64,000 nucleotides of DNA, taken from the NCBI GenBank assembly GCA_963798085.1, contig CAWCRS010000003.1, positions 864,001 through 928,000 on the forward strand, written 5' to 3'. A program made the translations under genes and the position numbers. Source of the stretch: an uncultured Gemmatimonadales bacterium. GTDB lineage: Bacteria > Gemmatimonadota > Gemmatimonadetes > Longimicrobiales > RSA9. Shown one piece after another: positions 5,264 to 23,171 of this stretch (position 1 is its first letter; the number at the start of each line of letters is the position of its first letter). A model generated the notes under the pieces. That model did no database searches, was not told the origin of the DNA, and saw only the letters and a program-made list of their open reading frames with translations.

Positions 5264-5797
5264 GTGAGCGAGAGTCCTGCGCCTTCCTGGTCCATCCGCT
5301 TCTACACATCCGCGGATCGCGCCGCGCTCGAAAGACTCTATATCGACTTCGAGCCGAAACGCGCCGCGCAGGGTCTGCCACCCGACACACCCGCTCGTGT
5401 GATCGCCTGGCTCGATGGCCTGCTCGCCCATGGCCATCATCTTGTGGCCACCGCGGGCGCAGCCATCATTGGCCACGTCATGCTCGTGCCCTTCGCTGAG
5501 CACACGGTCGAGCTGGCCGTGTTCGTCGCCGAGGTCTGGCGTGATCACGGCGTGGGCACTGCGCTGAATCGTGCCGCCGTGCAGTGCGCGCGCGACGCCG
5601 GCTGGTGGCGCGTCTGGCTCTCCGTTGCGCCCTCCAACGGCGCCGCCATCCGGTCCTACGTCCGCGCCGGTTTCCAGCTCGTGCCGTTCGCGACGCCCGC
5701 CGATTCCTGGGCGTCGGAGCTGGAAATGGAGATCGACCTGCGCGCGCCTCGCGTGGCGGACGCCGGCGCTGCACCGGGAGTCGGAACCGCGCCGTGA
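5264..5797 (+). CDS. GNAT family N-acetyltransferase
   Basis: Motif A WRDHGVGTAL and motif B NGAAIRSYVRAGF. Confidence 0.8.
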   Translation: MSESPAPSWSIRFYTSADRAALERLYIDFEPKRAAQGLPPDTPARVIAWLDGLLAHGHHLVATAGAAIIGHVMLVPFAEHTVELAVFVAEVWRDHGVGTALNRAAVQCARDAGWWRVWLSVAPSNGAAIRSYVRAGFQLVPFATPADSWASELEMEIDLRAPRVADAGAAPGVGTAP

Positions 5798-7422
5798 ACC
5801 GTGTGTGCGTCGTCGCCTGCAGCCGGGTCATTCCTGCGGCGCCGCCGTGCCCCACCCGTTTCGTGCATCGGGCCCTCGGCAACGTCCGCGTTGCGACACT
5901 GCTCTTCGCCCTCGGCCTCGCCCGGCCGTTGCAGGCGCAGCAGCGGCCGCTGCCGGCGCTCGCGCCTGGATTCCTTCCCGTGTCGCACTGGTCGCGCACT
6001 GCGCTGCAGCGGCTCACCGCCGCCGGTCTGCTGCGCGCCGCGGACGCCGCCCTGGCGTGGCCCCTCACGCCCGCGTTCGCAAACACGCTGTTCGAGCGCG
6101 CCGCTGCTGACTCGCTGTTACCGCCCGGCTCCGGGAATGCCGGGGCGCCGCCCGCCGCACGGGATGCAGACGACGACGGGACCCTCCGGATCCTGGCCCG
6201 CGTCTACCGGGATCGCCTGCGCCGCGAGTTCCTGACGTACAATGTGGGTGGATTGCGTGTGGCCGCAGCGCTGCACGCGAGCCTCGACCGCACGTCTAAC
6301 GAGCTGTTTGCAGGCCGCACCGTGCCCAGCCCTGGCGGCTACGACTATGCGGGCCCACGGGCGAGAGCCGACAGCACGAACGGCCGTTTCGGAGCGGCAC
6401 TCGGCGTGGCCGCCGGACCCGTGGCCGCAGAAGCTGATCTGCAGCAGTCACGCACCGGCGCAAGTGTCGCCGGCGCTGCCCTGACCGCCGCCATCGGCCG
6501 CGCCCGGCTCTGGGTCGGCCGCAGACCCCTCAGTCTCGGACCCTCGCCCGCTGGTGGACTCGTGCTGGGAAATGCCGTCGCGTTCGACGGCGGTGGCCTG
6601 GACGTCGTGGACGGGTTCCGGCTGCCCGGCTTCCTGCGGGCCCTCGGGCCCGTCCGCCTGGCACAGCTGCTGGCGCGCATGCAGCGCAGCGGCGACATCG
6701 TGCACCCGTGGTTCCTGGCGCAACGGTTTTCCTTCGCACCGGCCGCGCGTGTCGACATCGGCATCAACCGCGCCGCGATCTTCGGCGGCCGGGGCAATGA
6801 GGGCGTCACACCGACCCGCATCTTCTGGATGCTGCTGGGCCAGACCGACGTCGCCAGCAAGGACAGCGATTTCGAGAATCAGGTCGCTTCGGTGGACGTC
6901 GTGTGGCAGCCGCCTTCGCGAACACCGCTGTTATTGCACGCCGAATGGGGCTTCGACGACGCGGGCGCGGCATTCCTGATCGTGCCCGCCATCATCGCCG
7001 GCGTCGAGCTGGCGGAACTGCCCGGTGCCCGCGCGCTCGGGCTGGGCCTCGAGGCAACTCATTTCACCGGCAACTGCTGCGGCTACCCGCCCTGGTACTG
7101 GCATGGCGAACTTTCCGAAGGCTGGACCGACCGCGGTGTGCTGCTGGGCAGCGCACTCGCCGGTCACGGCGATGAGGCCGCAATCACCTGGAACCTCGAC
7201 ATTGCGCGCGCCACCGTAATCGCCGACGGCCGGCTGTACACCCGCCACCGCAACCGCGAGAACCTCTACGCCCCCGACCGTCTCGGCAGCAGCGCCGGCG
7301 CAGAACTGAACCTGTCGGCAGCGCTGTCCCATCGTCTCCGACTCGAAACCACCACCGACGCGGAGACCGCCCGCACATGGACCCGCTGGACTACCACCAT
7401 CACCACCAGCTTCCGGTTCTAG
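5794..7422 (+). CDS. Wzi-like outer-membrane beta-barrel protein (start uncertain)
   Basis: Signal peptide (LLFALGLARPLQAQ), WVGRRPLSLGP..GGLVLG, FENQVASVD, LLGSALAG, C-terminal Phe. Confidence 0.65.
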   Translation: MNRVCVVACSRVIPAAPPCPTRFVHRALGNVRVATLLFALGLARPLQAQQRPLPALAPGFLPVSHWSRTALQRLTAAGLLRAADAALAWPLTPAFANTLFERAAADSLLPPGSGNAGAPPAARDADDDGTLRILARVYRDRLRREFLTYNVGGLRVAAALHASLDRTSNELFAGRTVPSPGGYDYAGPRARADSTNGRFGAALGVAAGPVAAEADLQQSRTGASVAGAALTAAIGRARLWVGRRPLSLGPSPAGGLVLGNAVAFDGGGLDVVDGFRLPGFLRALGPVRLAQLLARMQRSGDIVHPWFLAQRFSFAPAARVDIGINRAAIFGGRGNEGVTPTRIFWMLLGQTDVASKDSDFENQVASVDVVWQPPSRTPLLLHAEWGFDDAGAAFLIVPAIIAGVELAELPGARALGLGLEATHFTGNCCGYPPWYWHGELSEGWTDRGVLLGSALAGHGDEAAITWNLDIARATVIADGRLYTRHRNRENLYAPDRLGSSAGAELNLSAALSHRLRLETTTDAETARTWTRWTTTITTSFRF

Positions 7423-7472
7423 CGCAGCAGCGTATCGAACCGTCCGCGCGCACTCCTTCCGGCAAGACGCTA

Positions 7473-7615
7473 TCGGACCGTCCTGGCATTCTTTCCTTCC
7501 GGCCGGCTCTCGCTATCCCGGCGGCCCGCGCCCGTATGCTGAGTGGTCAGTCGATTCAACGGTGCGCCTGCATCATGGTCAAACGTGGCACAACCCAAGT
7601 ATGCGGACGGTCCGA
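7473..7615. mobile_element. ~143-bp MITE/REPIN-like element, copy 1
   Basis: Left end TCGGACCGTCCTGGCATTCTT; right end AAGTATGC--GGACGGTCCGA; near-identical to copy 2. Confidence 0.75.
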
Positions 7616-7626
7616 TGAACGGCGCT

Positions 7627-7769
7627 TCGGACCATCCTGGCATTCTTTCCTTCCGGCCGGCTTCGCTATCCCGGCGACCCGCGCCCGTATGCTGAGTGGT
7701 AGTCGATTCAACGTTGCGCCGGCATCATGGTCAAACGTGGCACAACCCAAGTATGCCAAGACGGTCCGA
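7627..7769. mobile_element. ~143-bp MITE/REPIN-like element, copy 2 (tandem with copy 1)
   Basis: TCGGACCATCCTGGCATTCTT ... AAGTATGCCAAGACGGTCCGA terminal inverted repeats. Confidence 0.75.
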
Positions 7770-7813
7770 CAGCAGTTGCCCGACCCCGCCCGCTGCCCCA
7801 CCATTCAACCACC

Positions 7814-8881
7814 ATGACCGAACCTCAACCGAGGGACCAGCGACCCCGACTGCGCTTGTCGCAGCTGTCGCACGGCGCGGGTTGAGCCTGCAAGCTCGGC
7901 TCGGCTGAGCTCGCGCAGGTCCTGCGCGCCGTGGTCCCGTTCGCGGACCCGGACGTGCTCGTGGACACGAGCACCATGGACGACGCCGCCGTGTACCGGA
8001 TCGCTCCGGATCGCGCACTGGTGGCGACGCTGGACTTCTTCACGCCCATTGTCGACGACGCCTATGATTTCGGCCGCATTGCCGCCACTAACGCGCTGTC
8101 GGATGTCTACGCAATGGGTGGCCGTCCGCTCTTCGCGCTCAACATCGTGTGCTTCCCGCGCGACCTGCTCCACGAGGGCTGGCTCACGGAGATCGTGCGG
8201 GGCGGCGCCGACGCCGCCCGTGACGCGGGTATCGCCATCGTGGGCGGCCACTCGGTGGATGATCCCGAGCCCAAGTACGGTCTCACCGTCATCGGCGAGC
8301 TGCACCCTGATCGCGTGGTGCGCAACGCCACCGCGCGTCCCGGTGACCTGCTGGTGCTCACCAAGCCCATAGGCACCGGCGTCATCGCCACTGCAATCAA
8401 GAAGGATGCGGCGCCGCCCGACATGATCCGCACCGCCGTCGCCAGTATGACCACGCTGAATCGCGGCGCCGCCGAAAGCATGATGGCCGTGGGCGTGAGT
8501 GCCGCAACGGACATCACGGGCTTCGGTCTGCTTGGCCATCTGCGCTCCATGGCCAGGGCGAGCGGCGTGAGCGCGCGTATCCGCGCAGCCGCAGTGCCGC
8601 TGCTGCCGGGCGCGCTCGAGCTGGCGCGCGCCGGTCACATCCCTGGCGGTACGCAGCGCAATCTGACGGATACTGCAGGCGACGTTTCTTTTGCCGTTTC
8701 CGTCGATCCCGTCGTGCGCATCCTCCTGGCCGACGCCCAGACTTCCGGTGGCCTGCTCATCGCGCTCCCCGCCGAGCGCCTGGATGCGTTGCTCTCCAGA
8801 CTCCGTGAAGCGGGCACACCCGCCGCTGACACCATCGGCGAAATCATCGCCGGTCCGCCCGGCCACCTCACCGTCGACTGA
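7814..8881 (+). CDS. selD: Selenide, water dikinase, selenocysteine-containing (TGA at 7883-7885)
   Basis: ATG 7814 reads MTEPQPRDQRPRLRLSQLSHGAG-UGA-ACKLG, in frame with ORF 7931-8881 (DDAAVY, DFFTPIVDD, NALSDVYAMGG, TDITGFGLLGH, DAQTSGGLL). Confidence 0.95.
7886..7920 (+). promoter_or_regulatory. Putative bacterial SECIS hairpin
   Basis: GCCTGC-A-AGCTCGGC-TCG-GCTGAGCT-CGC-GCAGGT: two-part stem-loop immediately 3' of the UGA. Confidence 0.75.
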
Positions 8882-9344
8882 CCCCGCCCGGTTGCTGTGC
8901 AATCGCCCGGTCCGGAACTCACATCAGGACATTGTCAGTCTGGCCGATCGGCTGCCGCCACCGCCTGCAGCTCCAGACGGCGCCGCGCACCCGCCCGGCC
9001 ACGGTGCGAAACAAGTCATGATCTTCCTGTCCGACGTGGTGCAAGTCCCGACAACATCAACCCACCATCGCTGTAATACTTGGCGCTGTGGTAACGGCCC
9101 GGCGCTTCGCCAGACTCGCCGGGGCCTGACTCATTCGAGGCGGGTGTGCCAGCAGGTTCGCCGTCGTCGCAGCACCCGACATGGCCGGGCGGGTTATACT
9201 CGAGCCCGGCGCAACGCGTCCCCCGACCGCAGTGCAATTCTGCCGACCCGTACCCGCGTCACCACCTCGTAATCTTCCCGACATCACTCTGCCCGAACCG
9301 GCAGAGCTCTTCCAACCCCCTTGTCACCGCCTGAGGAGGCCATC

Positions 9345-10748
9345 ATGCTTCGTGCACTGGGTAGATCCATCGCCGTCGCGGCGTTGGCATCATCGCTCTT
9401 CGTTCTTCGCGCCAGCGCAAGCAGCACGGATCCTCCATCCTCTTCGGGCAACAGCGGCTCATTCAGGTTGTCCGCATTGCATCAGTTCTCCATTCCGAGC
9501 TTCTCGCGACAGACGAAACTGCCCTGCAGTGCGTGCCACACGCAGTTTCCTCAGCTGACGTCCTTCGGCCGGCTCTTCAAACTGAATGGGTACACACTGT
9601 CGGGAATCGAAAAGGTGGTCGTCAGCGCTGAGGCCGCGAGTTCCAGCCTGGCGCTCGATCTGATTCCGCCGCTTTCGGTCATGGCCGAGGTGTCGACCAC
9701 CACGATTTCGAAGGAGCCGTCGGGGACACAGAACAACTCGGTCGAGTTTCCCGACCAGTTGAGCCTCTTCGTCGGCGAAGCCATAACGCCTAAACTGGGC
9801 ACGTTCCTGCAATTCACCTACAGCGGCGTGGATGGCTCATTCGGTTGGGACAATGCAGACATCCGCTACGCGTCGCACGCCACGGTCGCCAGCAAGCCGA
9901 TGATCTTCGGCGTGACGGTGAATAACAGCCCCACGGTCCAGGACGTCTGGAATTCCACGCCTGTCTGGGGCTTTCCTTTCGCTTCTTCGCCGGTCGCGCC
10001 CGGACCTTCCGCGGCTCCCTCTATCAGTGATGACCTGGCTCAGCGAGTGGCGGGGATTGGTGGCTACGTTTTCTGGAACAACCTCGTGTACGCCGAACTC
10101 TCAGGGTACCGCTCCGCGCCGCAGGGCGGCCCGCACCCGGCCGACCAGAATTCCGAGGGCACCATCAAGGGTATAACACCGTATTGGCGGCTGGCACTCG
10201 CACGGGACATTGGCTCGCATTCGGTGGAGATTGGCACCTTCGGGTTGTCCACTCGCCAGTTTCCGACCGGCGTTTCCGGCGCAACCAATACCTTTACCGA
10301 TGTGGGATTCGACGGCCAGTGGCAGCGCATGCTCGGCCGCTCGAGTTTCTCGGCACATGGCAGCTACATTCATGAGGAGCAGACGCTTACGGCGTCATTC
10401 ATGGATGGCGACGCGGCCAACATCAAGAATGGGCTGCGCAGCTGGAAGCTCGACGGGCAGGTGCTTCTGCCACCGGGCGTTGGCGCTGCGCTCGCCTATT
10501 TCGGCTCGTCCGGCGACGCCGATCCGAATCTCTATGCCCCCGGCGAGGTGACGGGCAGTGCGTCGGGTCGGCCGAACAGTAACGGGCTTGTTGCCGAGCT
10601 CGACTACAATCCCTGGCTCAACACCCGCCTGTCGCTGCAGTATGTGGCCTACACGAAATTCAATGGTGGATCGACCGGCTACGACGGCTTCGGGCGCAAT
10701 GCCTCGAACAATAACACCCTGTACCTGGTAGCATGGCTCGTGTTCTGA
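9345..10748 (+). CDS. cyc2: Cyc2-type outer-membrane monoheme cytochrome c-porin fusion
   Basis: GAGGAGG RBS, signal peptide, motif IPSFSRQTKLPCSACHTQFPQLTSFGRLFKLNGY, beta-strand-rich body, C-terminal NASNNNTLYLVAWLVF. Confidence 0.85.
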   Translation: MLRALGRSIAVAALASSLFVLRASASSTDPPSSSGNSGSFRLSALHQFSIPSFSRQTKLPCSACHTQFPQLTSFGRLFKLNGYTLSGIEKVVVSAEAASSSLALDLIPPLSVMAEVSTTTISKEPSGTQNNSVEFPDQLSLFVGEAITPKLGTFLQFTYSGVDGSFGWDNADIRYASHATVASKPMIFGVTVNNSPTVQDVWNSTPVWGFPFASSPVAPGPSAAPSISDDLAQRVAGIGGYVFWNNLVYAELSGYRSAPQGGPHPADQNSEGTIKGITPYWRLALARDIGSHSVEIGTFGLSTRQFPTGVSGATNTFTDVGFDGQWQRMLGRSSFSAHGSYIHEEQTLTASFMDGDAANIKNGLRSWKLDGQVLLPPGVGAALAYFGSSGDADPNLYAPGEVTGSASGRPNSNGLVAELDYNPWLNTRLSLQYVAYTKFNGGSTGYDGFGRNASNNNTLYLVAWLVF

Positions 10749-10756
10749 ACGCATTG

Positions 10757-10787
10757 CCGGCCACCCACGCTGTGTGGCCGGTCTTGT
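10757..10787 (+). terminator. Stem-loop between cyc2 and the cytochrome c gene
   Basis: CCGGCCAC/GTGGCCGG stem followed by TCTTGT. Confidence 0.35.
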
Positions 10788-10819
10788 CCATCCTGGCCGC
10801 GCCGGAGCGCGGGAGGTGA

Positions 10820-11332
10820 ATGTTGGCAATGAACAGTCACGGCAGGCTCCTCATCCTCGCGACCCTGCTCACGACCTCGCTCGCCGCAGGGCGCCAGGGT
10901 GCGGCTGCCGCTGTCCTCGCCGCGGTGCCTCCAGCGGCCTGCCCGGCCACCTCGCCGGTCACGTTGTCGGTCGGCCGCCGCGAAACCCAGGCTGGCGCGC
11001 GCAGCCAGGATCCCTGCACGAAACCCACGGCTGCTCTGGTCGCGAGCGGCAAGAAGGTGTTCGGCGGCGCGGGGAACTGTGCCACCTGTCACGGCACGGA
11101 TGCAAAGGGAACACCTCTCGCGCCGGATCTCACCGACAAGACGTGGCTCAACATCGACGGCTCCTTCGTGGCCATCGCAGGCCTGGTGCCCAAGGGTGTG
11201 CCACAGCCCAAGAGCCACCCGGCGCCCATGCCCCCGTTCGGCGGCGCACAACTCAACAATGCTCAGGTGTGCGCCGTCGCTGCGTACGTGTACTCGCTCA
11301 GTCATCCGGACAGCATTCCGAAGGGGAAGTAG
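10820..11332 (+). CDS. Periplasmic monoheme class I cytochrome c
   Basis: GGGAGG RBS, signal peptide, GKKVF...CATCHG, APDLTD, distal Met in PAPMPPFGG. Confidence 0.88.
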   Translation: MLAMNSHGRLLILATLLTTSLAAGRQGAAAAVLAAVPPAACPATSPVTLSVGRRETQAGARSQDPCTKPTAALVASGKKVFGGAGNCATCHGTDAKGTPLAPDLTDKTWLNIDGSFVAIAGLVPKGVPQPKSHPAPMPPFGGAQLNNAQVCAVAAYVYSLSHPDSIPKGK

Positions 11333-11565
11333 CCGCGCAACGCAGCTGAGTCTGCTGTATTGAACGTTCCGGGCCGGCCTCTGCCGGCCTGGAACTGGTC
11401 CGCGCATACCCCGCTCCACTTAACGCGCGGTTACAACCCGGAAGTGTGTGTACTTTGGCGCGGAGTCACGCTCACAGCCAGGTGATCTGCCGCATTCGCA
11501 AGTCCAGCAAGAACTGCCAGGAGCCAACCGCACAGCCTTGCGTTGTGTCCAACTTCCAGACTGCC

Positions 11566-13422
11566 ATGAGATTCGTGTCACCGAGACTGTTGCACGCAGC
11601 TCTCGCCGGTTGCTGCCTGACCGCCGCGTCAGCCCGGCTGGAGGCGCAGGCCGCTTCCTCAACCGAGGGCGTAGCCACGGCGCAGGCGCTGGCCGACTCC
11701 GTCCGTGTCCGCTTCGCCCGCGGTGACACCACGCGTTTCGCCCGCATTTTCCCCTTTGCCAGAGGCGTCGCCCTGCTCACGGACGCGGTGCGCAACGCGC
11801 ATCCGGCAGTGGCTGAAGTCGCGCGCGTTACGGGCGCCACCGCTGATTCCGCCACGCTGCTGCTCACGGGATTCGTACGCTTCCGCAGCACTGGCGACGA
11901 GACGCTGGCCGCTGCCGACTTCTCCGGCCTCTATCAGGCGGGTCGCGGCCGCGATGGCCTCTGGCGTCTCGTGCACGCGCTGCCCATGGCGAAGCAGACG
12001 CGCATTCTCGCGCATCGCCTGCACGTCGTGCTGCGGCCCGGACTCGGCCTGGATGTCACGGATTCACTGGACCTCGAAGTCGAATCGTCGCACGGTGCGC
12101 TGTTCCATCTCAACCACGCGGCCATGCTCGACACGGTGCGCGTGGCCGGCCGTGACGCGCACCATCTGTTCGGCGGCGGCGTGCTCTGGCTCGATGCTCC
12201 GGCTGACCAGGACACGCCTGTCGTCCTCAACTACCGCCTGGACATCGCGCAGGACTCGAGCGCACCCGTGAATTCCGCGCGCTTCCTGCCGGACTTCGGG
12301 CACGTGCGCGGCCAGTACATGTGGCATCCCATCGTTTGGTTCGACGACGCCGCGGCCGTTCACATCAACGTGCGCGCGCCGTCCGGCGTGCGCGTCGCTA
12401 CCGACCTGCCGCAAACCGACACGATCCTGCACGGCACCCGTATCGTCACGGCCGCAGCAGCCGTGCCTGCGGGCGCGCTGTCGCTGTTCTATGACCGGGA
12501 CTGGGTTCCCAGCGAGCGGCGCGTCGGCAATTATCGCTTCACTGTGTTCGCCACGCCCGGCTTCAGGCCCCCGGCCGATACTCTCGCCGCTGCGTTCCAG
12601 CGCATCGTGCGCGTGTACAGCGCTCGCTTCGGCCCCCCGCAAGCAGACTACCTCGCCGTGGTGCAGCAGCGTGCGCGACCCGGTGAAGGCTGGCTCTTCC
12701 GCTCGAATAATGTAATCGCCGCATCGCTCAACGGCTGGCTGCTCATGTTTTCCGAGCCGCAGCCGGGCACGCCTTTCGGCCACGAGATCGCGCACGGCTG
12801 GACCCACCCTGCCGGCAGCGCGCGCCTGTTCCTGAGCGAGGGATGGGCGACGTGGGCCGCTTCCCTGATCCTGCGTGATGTGTATGGCGCCGATGTCGAG
12901 CAGAAGTACTGGGATGCGCAGCGCCACGAATATCTGACCGGAGATTACGAAGGCAAGGCCAGCCTGGCAGGCGACGCGCTCAACAGCGGCGTGTCGTATG
13001 GGAAGGGCGCATGGGTGCTCAAGATGCTCGAGGAGGAAATCGGACAGGCAGCCTTCGATGGCGGCATGCGCGCCTGGATGGCCATACCGGCCGACAGACA
13101 GCCCGACTACATCGCCTTCCTCGACCGGATGAGCAGCGCCGCAGGCAGGGACCTGCGTGACTTCATGACGCCATGGGTGGAAGCGAAGGTGATCCCGCAG
13201 CTGACCGCGTCAATCGAAGCATCGCGTCTGGTGCTGACGCAGCGGCAGGACGGCCCGGTCTTTCAGCTGCATGTCAATGTGGACCTGATCACTGCCTCGG
13301 GCAGCGTTCGCGTCACCGTCCCGCTCGCCGCGCGCACGAGCTCGTTCCCCCTGCCACCCAGCGTCTCGTCTCCCGTAACCCGCATCGTCATCGACCCCGC
13401 GCGCAAACTCCTGCTCCACTAA
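11566..13422 (+). CDS. Secreted M1-family (gluzincin) metallo-aminopeptidase
   Basis: Signal peptide; HEIAHGW...FLSEGWA (HExxH + distal E); YGKGAWVL. Confidence 0.8.
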   Translation: MRFVSPRLLHAALAGCCLTAASARLEAQAASSTEGVATAQALADSVRVRFARGDTTRFARIFPFARGVALLTDAVRNAHPAVAEVARVTGATADSATLLLTGFVRFRSTGDETLAAADFSGLYQAGRGRDGLWRLVHALPMAKQTRILAHRLHVVLRPGLGLDVTDSLDLEVESSHGALFHLNHAAMLDTVRVAGRDAHHLFGGGVLWLDAPADQDTPVVLNYRLDIAQDSSAPVNSARFLPDFGHVRGQYMWHPIVWFDDAAAVHINVRAPSGVRVATDLPQTDTILHGTRIVTAAAAVPAGALSLFYDRDWVPSERRVGNYRFTVFATPGFRPPADTLAAAFQRIVRVYSARFGPPQADYLAVVQQRARPGEGWLFRSNNVIAASLNGWLLMFSEPQPGTPFGHEIAHGWTHPAGSARLFLSEGWATWAASLILRDVYGADVEQKYWDAQRHEYLTGDYEGKASLAGDALNSGVSYGKGAWVLKMLEEEIGQAAFDGGMRAWMAIPADRQPDYIAFLDRMSSAAGRDLRDFMTPWVEAKVIPQLTASIEASRLVLTQRQDGPVFQLHVNVDLITASGSVRVTVPLAARTSSFPLPPSVSSPVTRIVIDPARKLLLH

Positions 13423-13639: not shown

Positions 13640-15038
13640 TCAAATGTGCAGCGCCCGCCCCATCGATCCGAGTGCCGCCTCGCCGATCGCCTCCGACATG
13701 GTCGGGTGCGGATGGATCGCGCTGTCCATTTCTTCGGCTGTCGTCTCGAGCGCGCGGCCCACGACGAATTCCGCGATCATCTCGCTCGCGTTCAAGCCCA
13801 CAATGTGCGCACCCAGGATCTCGCCGTACTTCTTGTCGCGGATCACCTTCACGAAACCGTCCGTCTCGCCGGCAGTGCGTGCGCGGCCGTTGGCGCTGAA
13901 CGGGAACGACCCGATCTCGAAGTCCAGCCCTTTTTCCTTCGCCTGCTTCTCCGTCAGCCCGACGGACGCGACTTCGGGATGGCAGTAGGTGACGTTGGGT
14001 ATGTTGTTGTAGTCGACCGTGCCGTGCCCCACGCCGGCCAGCGCTTCCACGAGGTGCACGCCCTCGTGTGAGGCCTTGTGCGCCAGCAGCGGGGGACGCG
14101 CGCAGTCGCCGATCGCGTATATGCCCGCCGCCGTGGTGCGCAGGTTGTCGTCCACCTTGATGAAGCCCCGCTCCACCTGCACGCCGGCCTTTTCCAGGCC
14201 AATGTCGTCGACGATCGGCGCGCGCCCCACCGCCATGAGCACGCGCTCCACCTCGATGGTCTTCGACTTCCCATCCTTGGTCGCGAGGGTCAGCGTCACG
14301 CCGTTCTTGCCGACATCGGCCTTCTCGAGTCGTGCACTGGTGTGCACCTCAATGCCGCGCTTCCTGTAGGCTTTCTCGACGACAGTCGCCGAATCCGTGT
14401 CCTCCAGCGGCAGCACCTGATCGAGTGCCTCAATGATCGTGACCTTCGAGCCGAACGCGCTGTAGATGTCGGCGAACTCCATGCCGATCGCGCCCGCGCC
14501 AATGATGCCCAGCGTCGCAGGCGTCGCCGAGGGAAACACCGCGGTATCGCTGCTCCACACGCGGTCGCCATCGATCTTCAGAATGGGCAGCGACTTCGGC
14601 CGCGAGCCGGTCGCCAGGATGATGTGCTGCGCGCTCAGTCGTGCGGTCGCCATCCTTGCCACTGACTGACACCTTGTTACCGCCCGCCAGCCGGGCCCAG
14701 CCCGCCACGGTCTCGATCTTGTGCTTCTTGAACAGGAAGACGACGCCGCGCATTCCCTGGTCTGCGACTTTCTTCGCCCGCTTGCCCGCGACGCCAATGT
14801 CCAGCTTCACATCGGAAACGGTGATGCCGAAGTCGGCCAGGTCCGGCAGTTTCTTCGCGTATTTGGCGCTTTCCAGCAGCGCCTTGGTCGGAATGCAGCC
14901 GATTGCGTTGCACACGCCGCCCAGCTTGTCGGCCTCGATGCAGGCCACCTTCATGCCCAGCTGTGCCGCGCGGATCGCCGCCACGTAGCCGCCCGGCCCG
15001 CCGCCGATCACGATCAGATCGTATGAGTTGTCCGCCAC
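13640..15038 (-). CDS. lpdA: Dihydrolipoyl dehydrogenase (E3); frameshift near 14640
   Basis: YDLIVIGGGPGGYVAA, GGVCNAIGCIPTK, IIGAGAIGMEF, HPHPTMSE. Confidence 0.95.
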
Positions 15039-17487: not shown

Positions 17488-18680
17488 CTACTCCTCGACT
17501 GGCCCGTGCGGGCTCCCGGATCCGGCGAGCGCATCGAAGAACAGTCGACCGTGCACGTTCATGTCCGTGTACACGTGCTCGCGCAGCCCGGCTGGATCCG
17601 GCTCCGGCGATGCTTCCGCGAAGTCCACGGCGTCCTGAACCTCATCGTGGGCGCGCGCATCGATCGACTTCAGCTCCGCTTCCGTCAGCAGACCCGCGTC
17701 CTGCAGGCGATCGATGAAAATCCGGATCGGATCGTTCGCCTTGTGCTCCTCCAGCTCCTCTTTCGTGCGATAGACGCCACTGACCGGGTCCGACATCGAG
17801 TGCCCCATGAAGCGATAGGTCTGCGCCTCGATCAGCGTCGGCTTCCCCTCCCGCCTCGCCAGCTCCACCGCTTCCAAGCACGGTCGCGCGCATGGCCAGC
17901 ACATCCATCCCATCCACCGCGGCGGACCGCATCCCGTAGGAGTCCGCCTTCTTCGCGATGCTCAGCTCCGCCGCCGCCCGGTTCCAGGCCGTGCCCATGC
18001 CGAACCAGTTGTTCTCGACAATGTCAGATGACCGGCAACTTCCAGAGTTCAGCCATGTTCAGCGATTCGTGGAAGGAACCCTGATTCACGGCCGCTTCCC
18101 CCATGAAGCACACGCAGACCTGTGCGGCCGCGTCGTTGCGCGCGTTGCGCGCAGGACCACGGCCACTCCCGTTCTCGGCCGGATTGTCCGCGTTGGCGCC
18201 AGCTTGCGCCTGCTTGTAGCGAATGGCCCAGCCGATGCCCGTCGCGAGCGGAATCTGTCCGCCCACTATGCCCCAGCCACCCATGAAATGGTGCTGAGCA
18301 CTGTAAAGGTGCATCGAGCCACCCCGGCCACCCGAGCAGCCATCCGCACGGCCGTACAGTTCGGCCATGACCGCGCGCGCGCTGATGCCCTTCAGCAGCG
18401 CCTGGACGTGCTCCCGGTACGCCGTGATCACGTAATCGTCGGGATTCAGCGCCGCCATCGTGCCGGCAGCCACTGCCTCCTGTCCAATGTAGAGGTGGCA
18501 GAACCCGCCGATCTTGCCCACGGCGTACGCTTCAGCGGCCCGCTCCTCGAAGCGTCGACCCAGCAGCATCTGATGCAGGATCTGCTGCAGCTGCTCGCGC
18601 TCGAGCCCTTCGAGCTGGGCCTTCCGCCCATTGGCCGCGCGCCCGCGCGACCGGCTCTCGGCAGTCTCCGTGCTTGCCAT
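17488..18680 (-). CDS. pdhA: Pyruvate dehydrogenase E1 alpha; frameshifts near 18025 and 17880
   Basis: GFCHLYIGQEA, GRGGSMH, VDGMDV, TYRFMGHSMSD spread over three frames. Confidence 0.92.
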
Positions 18681-21465: not shown

Positions 21466-23171
21466 TCAGTAGCCCACGGCCATGCCGTCCTTGCGCGGGT
21501 CCGAACCGGCGGCCCAACCCTTCGCCAGCCGCATGATCAGCTGGGCGCCGCCGAACGCGACCAATGTCTCGTCTGCGATTTCGTGTCCCATCGCGGCGAG
21601 GGCCCGACGGACGTCGTCGCCTATCGGCGTCTCCAGCGCCACGCGCCGGCCGCTCAGGTGTCGGAACCTCGCCGCGTCCGCGGCCTGCTGCAGGTCCATC
21701 CCGAACACGAGCAGGTCGAGCAGCACCTGGACGTGCCCCTGCGGCTGCATGGATCCACCCATCACGCCGAATGACAGCCACGGCTCTTCGCCGGTCGCAT
21801 CGCGCAGCACACCCTGCGGGTGCGTCGTCTTCGTGACGAACGCGGGAATGATCGTGTGGAACGGGCGCTTGCGCGGTCCTGCTGTGTTGGCCAGACCCTC
21901 CACGAGCGTGAAGCCCGATCCGCGATCCTGCATCACGAAGCCCGTTCCGGGCACGACGATGCCTGAGCCGAACTCGTCGTAGTTGCTGTTGATGAACGAA
22001 ATCATGTTCCCCTGCGCGTCCGCTGCGGTCAGGTAGATGGTCTCGCTCGTTGTCGTCGCCTCACCCGGGTCGACGTGCTCCGCTGCGTGCGTCTCGTTCA
22101 ACTCCGCTCTGCGCGCGCGAATGAAATCGTCCGACAGGAGCCGTTCGGGCGGTATCGTCATCTGCGCGGGATCGCCCACGTAATGCTCGATGTCCGCATA
22201 GGCGATCTTCTTCGCTTCAATCAGGTGGTGCAGGTACGCCGCCGAATTGTGGCCCATGGCCTTGAGGTCGTAGGGCTCGAGGATGCGCAGCATTTCCAGT
22301 GCGGCGATGCCCTGGCCGTTCGGCGGCAGCTCCCACACGCGGTAGCCTTTGAAGGGTACGGAGATCGGCTCGACCCAGTCGGCCTTGTGCGCCGCGAAAT
22401 CCTCGGGCGTCAGGAATCCGCCCAGCGATTGCACGTGCTCCGCGATGCGCTTGCCCAGCGCGCCGCCATACAGGAGGCCCGGACCCTGCGCCGCTACTCG
22501 CGGAACGTCTTCGCCAGATCCGGATTGCGGAACCACTCACCCGCGTGCGGCGCGCGTTCGCCGTTCCGATGAGGTAGGTCGCGCGTGCGCCCGGGTCGCG
22601 CTTCAGCAGGTCGGTCTGCGCCGCCCACTCGCTCGCGATGATGGGGGACACTGGAAAGCCCTCGTCGGCCAGTCGGATCGCGGGCGCCAGCGCATCGGCG
22701 ACGGAGATCGTGCCGAAGCGCTGCAGCAGGGACACCCAGCCCGAGAGCGCGCCCGGTACCGTGATCGACTCCGCGCTGCGACCCAGCATGTGCGTGCGCC
22801 CGCGCGCCACCAGCGTGGCCCGCGTCATCAGCGAGCCCGACGCGGCCGCTCGCGTTCAGGCCGTAGAGCGTGCCGTCCTTCGCCGACCAGATCATCGCGA
22901 AAGCGTCGCCGCCCATGCCCGTCATGTGTGGCTCGACCACGGCCAGCACCGCGGCGGCCGTCACCGCGGCATCCACCGCGTTGCCGCCATGCTGCAGCAC
23001 GGCCAGCGCCGCCGTGCTCGCCAGCGGCTGGCTGGTCGCCACCATGCCGTGCGGCGCATAGACGGTCGAGCGCCCCGCCATGCTCGTCGGCCTTTGCCCG
23101 GCCGCGGCGTTCACGCCCAGCGACACTGTCCCCAGCAGCGCCATGATCGATCCACCGATTCGCGGATTCAT
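21466..23171 (-). CDS. ggt: Gamma-glutamyltransferase family protein; frameshifts (~22845 and ~22500-22560)
   Basis: [29 protein letters not shown], nucleophile [25 protein letters not shown]; signal peptide. Confidence 0.9.

Follow-up and report, generated by a model that had tools for sequence, protein, structure and literature searches.

A Cyc2-family cytochrome-porin of Gemmatimonadota with an N-terminal extension apparently in place of the direct signal-peptidase site

The cyc2 gene is used as a marker for microbial iron oxidation. In the definition of Keffer et al. from 2021, a Cyc2 protein has a signal peptide, a single CxxCH motif with PxL four residues downstream, a length of at least 365 residues, and 16 strands with OprO/OprP as the nearest structures (PMC8406198), while in the model of Abriata the pore is plugged by the haem domain (bioRxiv 262287). 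The family is divided into clusters according to the scheme of McAllister et al. (PMC7029218), and Fe(II) oxidation has been demonstrated for one member of each cluster (PMC8406198, PMC7029218). A large share of clusters 2 and 3 is described by Keffer et al. as unverified; their Figure S7 gives identities of 27–35% within cluster 2 and 15–23% between clusters (PMC8406198). Cyc2-like proteins may also take part in electron transfer of kinds unrelated to Fe(II) oxidation, as pointed out by He et al. (PMC5566968). The published midpoint potentials extend from −130 mV (PMC13692758) to +560 mV (PMC13741234), a span of about 700 mV, so that the direction of electron flow cannot be read from membership of the family. 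In Gemmatimonadota, the presence of Cyc2 is already in print (PMC11316326), and rus-like oxidase clusters are known from Gemmatimonadetes (bioRxiv 2020.03.01.968255).

The window analysed here, a stretch of 64,000 nucleotides from an uncultured Gemmatimonadales bacterium, contains a gene for a fused monohaem cytochrome-porin, P0001, followed by one for a small cytochrome c, P0002 (Table 1). The initial annotation had described P0001 as a protein of Cyc2-type architecture, with a signal peptide, a single CxxCH within its motif, and a β-barrel-like body ending in Phe, and had proposed structure prediction as a check; all of these elements were recovered. The chain starts with basic and hydrophobic parts followed by A23-S24-A25, after which the cleavage site was placed by eye. 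The only CxxCH (C61/C64/H65) is invariant across 150 homologs, and the PxL element (P69-Q70-L71) lies four residues after it. An AF2 model calculated from an alignment of 150 sequences (mean pLDDT 90.1, pTM 0.85) predicts 16 long strands spanning residues 110 to 466, with Met113 located in strand 1, and the C-terminal residue is Phe. The top structural match of this model among 48,161 chains is OprP (2o4v; Z 22.0, rmsd 3.8, 319 residues aligned), tied with other 16-strand porins, and Foldseek likewise returns 16-strand porins that include OprO/OprP. Seven acidic residues (D169, D172, D200, E251, D319, D323, and E344) are 81–100% kept in close and distant homologs alike. Searches of Pfam, NCBIfam, and the PDB with the sequence of P0001 gave no matches.

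Table 1. Coordinates of the features of the cytochrome-porin gene and of the cytochrome c gene that follows it.
Feature	Position	Strand	Basis
Shine-Dalgarno-like GAGGAGG of the cytochrome-porin gene	9333..9339	+	5 nt ahead of the ATG (sequence)
Cyc2-family fused monohaem cytochrome-porin, 467 aa (P0001)	9345..10748	+	homologs, predicted fold
Signal-peptide-like region, P0001 residues 1–25, ending A-S-A	9345..9419	+	by eye; AF2 helix 4–26
24-residue Ser-rich extension of P0001 (26–49); His46 at 9480–9482	9420..9491	+	alignments, AF2, tree
Haem mini-domain of P0001: Ile50 (= canonical mature residue 1), upstream motif, CxxCH, PxL	9492..9605	+	
CxxCH of P0001, residues 61–65	9525–9539	+	within haem mini-domain
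Predicted 16-strand β-barrel (110–467) with terminal Phe	9672..10745	+	AF2, structure matches
Exported class I monohaem cytochrome c, 170 aa (P0002), likely periplasmic partner	10820..11332	+	CxxCH 87–91, Met137, Pfam

With 467 residues against the minimum of 365, P0001 also agrees with the published definition in length. Its upstream motif retains five of the seven fixed positions of the Keffer consensus (P51, F53, R55, Q56, and T57), in the register kept by the homologs, and departs from the strict consensus at both Ala positions, namely S49, just before mature residue 1, and S54, after the Phe. It was therefore filed as a Cyc2-family variant nested among consensus-bearing homologs, and not as a canonical member. 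Homologs from Burkholderiaceae, Acidiphilium, and Methylocystis, whose own cluster is assumed, are 31–41% identical to P0001 over 88–91% of its length; since these values can be set against the ranges of Keffer Figure S7, cluster 2 is plausible for P0001, an indirect placement made with these plasmid-type homologs, rather than with a reference Cyc2, as the standard. Replicons that carry the homologs at 31–41% identity belong to Ralstonia, Caballeronia, Paraburkholderia, Acidiphilium, and Methylocystis. The plasmid match in A. ferrooxidans is an Acidiphilium-type copy and not the Cyc2 of the rus operon.

The Cyc2-family gene is present in a single copy in the genome and gives no sign of foreign origin, its GC3 of 0.75 corresponding to the 36th percentile of long ORFs. 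No family reached its gathering score in an Rfam search over positions 7000–13000. Neither a sigma-70-like promoter nor a convincing regulator box was found at the locus, nor was an upstream element conserved in relatives of the gene. In two DNA runs, short contigs align without gaps to portions of the gene at 99–100% identity, none of them spanning the extension described below; an assembly error at that place is argued against by the open frame and the relatives alone.

The most distinctive part of P0001 is the spacer between the signal-like region and the haem mini-domain (residues 26–49), in which nine of the 24 residues are Ser and pLDDT falls below 50 in the AF2 model. A strict Ala-x-Ala that ends exactly 11 residues ahead of the first Cys is found in 104 of 126 distant full-length homologs, compared with only nine of the 120 close homologs, a set that includes P0001. 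The median distance from the hydrophobic core to the junction is 31 residues in the close set versus 8 in the distant one. The initial annotation had called the spacer atypical, which holds with respect to the Cyc2 family but not within Gemmatimonadota, where it is normal across a clade. What is new here is this clade, which, judging from its sequences, has no direct signal-peptidase site and carries an extension instead.

The extent of the clade was outlined with a FastTree phylogeny of 192 rows, comprising one in three of the close and one in two of the distant proteins, as well as proteins from the loci compared; four truncated rows were dropped and six ambiguous extension labels were set by eye. 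The branch that contains P0001 has 75 rows, 74 of them extended, with an SH-like support of 98. Outside it, extended forms are limited to a separate group of three rows and to two proteins of the distant subfamily, and two further "extended" labels were errors of the heuristic, with Ala-x-Ala sites visible in both. Among proteins from named genomes, the extension is present in 33 of Gemmatimonadota and in one labelled Bacillota that groups with them, whereas the direct site is found in three proteins of Gemmatimonadota and 37 of other phyla. The subclasses of the extension each carry conserved motifs of their own. In P0055, a relative with a conserved His-rich extension, a second fold gave pLDDT below 50 for residues 21–44, and in P0194, a single sequence with an upstream membrane domain fused to it, the signal-like stretch still ends with Ala-x-Ala at the same spot. 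A control for phylum-wide N-terminal trimming that utilized CopC was ambiguous, with 14 of 29 junctions direct and 15 of 29 short and non-canonical.

Two other positions differ along the same division. Glu145 is present in 106 of the 120 close homologs and in none of the 126 distant ones, and the residue following the motif Phe is Ser or Thr in 47 of 57 non-redundant extended proteins, while it is Ala in 40 of 43 relatives of the direct type. A phylogenetically independent test of the extension against Ser/Thr after Phe could draw on two pairs only and had no power, so the association is descriptive. The extension, Glu145, and Ser/Thr after Phe share ancestry, which does not imply that they are coupled. 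Since Glu145 is located on the outward-facing register of strand 2, as judged from the alternation of the strand, it and the extension could have to do with contacts between subunits of an oligomer instead of with haem ligation; modelling has led to the suggestion that Cyc2 forms a trimer (bioRxiv 2026.01.22.701106). For the extension of P0001 itself, we propose two possible fates, removal by a second trimming step or retention in the mature protein.

The largely fixed distance between the cleavage site and CxxCH in canonical Cyc2 raises the question of the sixth ligand of the haem. The signal peptide of A. ferrooxidans Cyc2 has 31 residues and its haem ligand is His47, and Edman sequencing of Cyt572 placed the mature start exactly at the motif, after Ala-x-Ala (PMC13741234). 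The AlphaFold3 models of Cyc2, Cyt572, and Cyc2PV-1 presented in the same paper have a single axial His only, and the ligand scoring described in its supplement left out backbone nitrogen atoms (PMC13741234). In cytochrome f, the sixth ligand is the α-amino group of the N-terminal residue (PMC6616624). We can speculate, tentatively and with more doubt than confidence, that canonical Cyc2 may similarly use the free α-amino group of mature residue 1, which would explain why, across phyla, the cleavage site is fixed 11 residues before CxxCH, and that the extended clade might have escaped this constraint through a second trimming or through a swap to His or Met, yielding a differently tuned haem and perhaps another donor. 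This proposal follows from the fixed cleavage register, the one axial His in the models, the small number of other conserved His and Met residues, and the precedent of cytochrome f. If amine ligation is indeed canonical, the extended clade needs either a second cleavage or another ligand, and with the extension kept, the candidates in P0001 are His46 and Met113.

Several observations weigh against amine ligation. The fixed N terminus could simply be a matter of limited space inside the pore, and the extension is tolerated throughout a large clade. Signals at g 2.94 and 2.25 are typical of bis-His coordination. The EPR spectra of Ghiorsea Cyc2 indicate two axial ligands, neither of them named, and the authors read g 2.94/2.25 as originating from His or Met (PMC13692758), so that these data favour ligands of the His/Met type. 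Similarity to cytochrome f was not listed in searches of the PDB and Pfam with a motif of 35–36 residues and a profile of 39 sequences, a query so short that it has little power. In the full-text literature searched, where subscription journals are thinly covered and published alignments may show the extension, no paper describing the extended clade or proposing amine ligation was found.

The distribution of possible ligands also bears on a different reading of the extended form. With its N terminus blocked, it might hold a five-coordinate haem and be non-respiratory, acting as a haem-gated channel, a ligand sensor, or a metal-detoxifying redox protein. Across the family, the candidates for the sixth ligand are limited to the mature N terminus, together with Met113 in the subfamily of P0001, and the extension removes the direct cleavage site. 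Met113 is the only other widely kept His or Met; 92 of the 126 distant homologs have it, and members of the K-Y motif subfamily have another residue in its place, yet it is present in 41 of 41 close homologs, which counts against a haem lacking a second ligand. Of 57 non-redundant extended proteins, 26 have a His one to five residues ahead of the junction (9, 8, and 9 in the next windows), P0001 with its His46 among them; gains and losses of this His on the tree number at least 15, a turnover in line with a non-respiratory role. An independent test of this His against the absence of Pro at the junction (nine pairs, median p 0.5) had no power, and that association is descriptive as well. The patchy distribution of the family, with no fixed respiratory context, would also agree with such a role; however, the haem motif and the residues of the lumen are conserved as strongly as in canonical members, and a cytochrome partner is still linked to the gene at many loci of the extended type. 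On balance, we consider a non-respiratory function unlikely.

The partner gene starts 71 nt downstream of the cytochrome-porin gene on the same strand. P0002 has the haem-binding residues C87/C90/H91 and the Met ligand M137, aligned with the Met of CcoP, and it matches the Pfam family Cytochrom_C (PF00034) with 43.5 bits against a cut-off of 21.3, in full agreement with the initial annotation, which had seen an adjacent, co-oriented His/Met monohaem cytochrome c. Synteny in relatives, suggested there as a further check, is found in 14 of 29 loci of the phylum, where the Cyc2 gene has a P0002 homolog no more than 1.5 kb away: next downstream and co-oriented in seven, upstream in one, convergent in two, and divergent in four. 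In the other 15 of 29, some of them cut by contig ends, no partner homolog is present within 1.5 kb, and this was counted against the main reading presented below. In a wider comparison, genes of a very distant Cyc2 subfamily are followed by a P0002-type cytochrome gene in six of ten family-level loci, two other monohaem families adjoin the Cyc2 gene in Bacteroidota and Ignavibacteriota (15 of 83 loci each), and plasmid copies of Cyc2 have a c-type cytochrome next downstream. The pairing of Cyc2 with a small cytochrome is an ordinary, already known kind of module.

How exclusive this pairing might be is a separate matter. The cytochrome-porin could be a conduit while P0002 is just a member of a set of general carriers in the periplasm, with no dedicated two-gene module. 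Two paralogs of P0002 (64% and 62% identical) are indeed encoded at genomic sites separate from the Cyc2 gene, and the orientation among relatives varies (eight co-oriented, two convergent, and four divergent). In turn, cytochromes of the P0002 type accompany two Cyc2 subfamilies that are very distant from each other, the two genes here are only 71 nt apart, and the + strand showed no terminator-like site. We consider the absence of any dedicated module very improbable. The module claimed by the initial annotation stands insofar as the pairing recurs, but it is not obligatory, and P0002 has its two further copies. A complex of the Cyc2 homolog (residues 26–467), the cytochrome c, and two haems was predicted with a score of 0.17, where the mark is 0.32, which speaks neither for nor against binding.

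The pair is flanked in the window by selD and a gene for an M1 peptidase. Apart from the partner, no gene of the window neighbourhood is recurrent beside Cyc2 homologs. The M1 peptidase, which lies downstream, was considered as the trimming enzyme, but a neighbourhood link to the Cyc2 gene was rejected, as it clustered with no protein of the other 82 loci; such a link was rejected for selD as well.

The genome provides possible outlets for electrons. It contains three COX1 (haem-copper oxidase) loci elsewhere and genes for cytochrome c maturation, as well as, by our own reading of the ORFs, an ACIII-like and a bc-like cluster. RuBisCO and acetyl-CoA synthase were searched for in this genome, which is 90% complete, and neither was found, so that within the routes searched the heterotrophic setting assumed in the initial annotation is upheld. 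Our main reading, for which we see about even chances, is that the Cyc2-family protein takes electrons from a dissolved external donor, probably Fe(II), and passes them via P0002 to the oxygen reductases as a supplementary source of energy. By analogy with the family, the 16-strand barrel would reside in the outer membrane, its pore closed on the periplasmic side by the haem domain, and the donor cation would be guided by acidic residues of the lumen. The external donor, in the likeliest case Fe(II), would reduce the single haem, from which the neighbouring P0002 would accept the electron and deliver it to the oxygen reductases. The gain that we propose for this heterotroph would be extra energy and not carbon fixation. 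Counted against this reading were also the negative result for linked oxidase, rusticyanin, or dihaem Cyc1 genes at the locus, the homologs at 31–41% identity on Burkholderiaceae and Methylocystis replicons, and the departure of P0001 from the strict consensus at both Ala positions.

The same genome can also be read in the opposite direction. At low O2 the pair might send electrons out of the cell, or carry them both ways, with humic quinones or chelated Fe(III) as acceptors; alternatively, reduced humics, and not Fe(II), might be the donor. Multihaem ORFs are abundant in the genome, the richest with 27 CxxCH motifs, and some of them lie, by our own reading of the ORFs, beside genes for barrel-like proteins; Cyc2 homologs are reported from heterotrophs of humic lakes and from relatives of Fe(III) reducers (PMC6344600), and the midpoint of −130 mV belongs to one Cyc2 (PMC13692758). 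A survey of Gemmatimonadota states that annotation cannot separate oxidation from reduction (PMC11316326). In spite of this, the characterised Cyc2 proteins in the papers cited here all take electrons from Fe(II), and the resemblance of P0002 to the His/Met domains of CcoP would suggest a high potential and flow towards the oxidases. An outward or humic-linked conduit therefore appears improbable to us, about as much so as a non-respiratory function.

Homologs of P0001 are numerous, although the close form is sparse near the source organism. Among 8000 scored candidates 3394 are homologs, and 2712 cluster representatives match P0001 at E ≤ 0.001; among named genomes Gemmatimonadota come first, followed by Bacteroidota and Ignavibacteriota. 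A profile match is present in 124 of 301 Gemmatimonadota genomes, and a close homolog (E < 1e-100) in 53 of 301 by our own count of the table, which takes in the source genome and the unpublished genome G185 (52 without G185). The close form occurs in only three of 40 near relatives, at 54–65% identity, and the sole genome of the same genus, 91% complete, has no match to P0001, which was also counted against uptake of electrons from an external donor.

With a close homolog in about one in six of the sampled Gemmatimonadota genomes, the function of these proteins bears on soil iron cycling as inferred from metagenomes, and a strict motif filter would exclude the extended clade from reference sets. 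The clade amounts to a natural experiment on the N terminus of Cyc2. Should the sixth ligand be the mature amine, a false picture of the haem would result from N-terminal tags, from swapped signal peptides, and from models that include the signal peptide, and the identity of the ligand could help to sort Cyc2 homologs by function. The interest of the locus lies in the clade-wide extension and in a ligand question that has become testable, and not in the two-gene module.

Compared by published description with the Cyc2 of A. ferrooxidans, a cluster 2 protein encoded by the first gene of the rus operon, P0001 shares the signal peptide, the one CxxCH, and the predicted 16-strand barrel resembling OprO/OprP. 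The haem His of that protein is mature residue 16, and the same register extends from Ile50 to His65 in P0001. P0001 differs in having 24 residues between the signal peptide and the position of the mature start, and in the replacement of both consensus Ala residues by Ser. In contrast to the rus operon, the partner here is monohaem; no dihaem Cyc1, rusticyanin or other cupredoxin, or oxidase genes linked to the Cyc2 gene were found at the locus, the oxidase loci being elsewhere, and, unlike in A. ferrooxidans, no RuBisCO was found in the host. The Cyc2 proteins of Mariprofundus PV-1 and Ghiorsea TAG-1 (cluster 1), as well as Cyt572 of Leptospirillum (cluster 3), have the same fused cytochrome-porin plan, again by description. 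The N terminus of Cyt572 is free at the motif, as determined by Edman sequencing, with Ala-x-Ala before it (PMC13741234), whereas the motif of P0001 is preceded by the extension. K-Y motif proteins of the same bacterial family, with an N terminus like that of Cyt572, are 23–28% identical to P0001 over approximately the first 130 residues, and one shorter match reaches 38%. Cytochrome f and Cyc2 both have a Pro directly after residue 1. Cytochrome f (PetA), an exported c-type cytochrome with an N-terminal amine ligand (PMC6616624), is comparable in haem ligation only, as its fold differs. The uncharacterised Cyc2 homologs of heterotrophs (Gemmatimonadota, Bacteroidota, Ignavibacteriota, Burkholderiaceae, and Acidiphilium) match P0001 over their full length at 31–65% identity and usually have a small cytochrome as a neighbour.

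The gene for the Cyc2 cytochrome-porin is directly preceded by selD, with a gene for a Wzi-like outer-membrane barrel two genes 5′ of the Cyc2 gene, and is followed, beyond the partner cytochrome c gene, by a gene for a secreted M1-family peptidase (Table). In the neighbourhood comparison of the window locus with 82 other Cyc2 homolog loci, the linkage between selD and Cyc2 was not found in relatives, the Wzi-like gene is not kept next to Cyc2, and no M1 peptidase homolog adjoins Cyc2 in the other loci. The selD product is probably a selenocysteine-containing SelD, since an in-frame TGA lies within the N-terminal catalytic motif.

Table. Coordinates of features in the window and in the host's own genome (G000; C, contig)
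Feature	Location	Strand
Wzi-like barrel gene	window 5584-7422	+
selD	window 7814-8881	+
In-frame TGA of selD	window 7883-7885	
M1-family peptidase gene	window 11446-13422	+
Frame-split regions	window 13640-15038, 17488-18680, 21466-23171	
Frame-split regions	G000:C3:435-436 kb, C9:138-139 kb	
Host CopC (L161)	G000:C5:828343-828633	
Multihaem clusters	G000:C7:484-491 kb and 619-625 kb; C4:37-47 kb; C10:103-111 kb; C8:33-35 kb	

Cyc2 paralogs occur as tandem or neighbouring pairs at loci L022, L035, L043, and L088, as well as on contig C36 of G211, another genome; the members of the L035 pair belong to two different subfamilies. The database protein P0194 (641 aa) carries a complete Cyc2 homolog, its own signal-like stretch retained, behind a fused upstream membrane domain that we read as cytochrome-b-like, and represents either a true fusion or a gene-calling artefact.

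The host genome includes several multihaem clusters, with 8 to 27 CxxCH motifs per ORF, some of which adjoin barrel-like or Rieske/cytochrome b genes, making these clusters candidate porin-cytochrome conduits. Frame breaks, probably due to assembly indels, interrupt housekeeping-like genes as well as two genes for oxidase subunit I; gene counts for this genome should be handled with care.

Among the CopC loci compared (L135-L164), 1-10 extra residues precede the metal-binding His1 in 15 of 29 Gemmatimonadota proteins, that of the host included, with the small-x-Ala site not directly before it. These residues could create X-X-His metal sites or be a sign of N-terminal trimming.

In the M1 peptidase, HExxH is found at residue 446 and the spacing to the downstream Glu is only 14 residues, shorter than the 18 that are usual.
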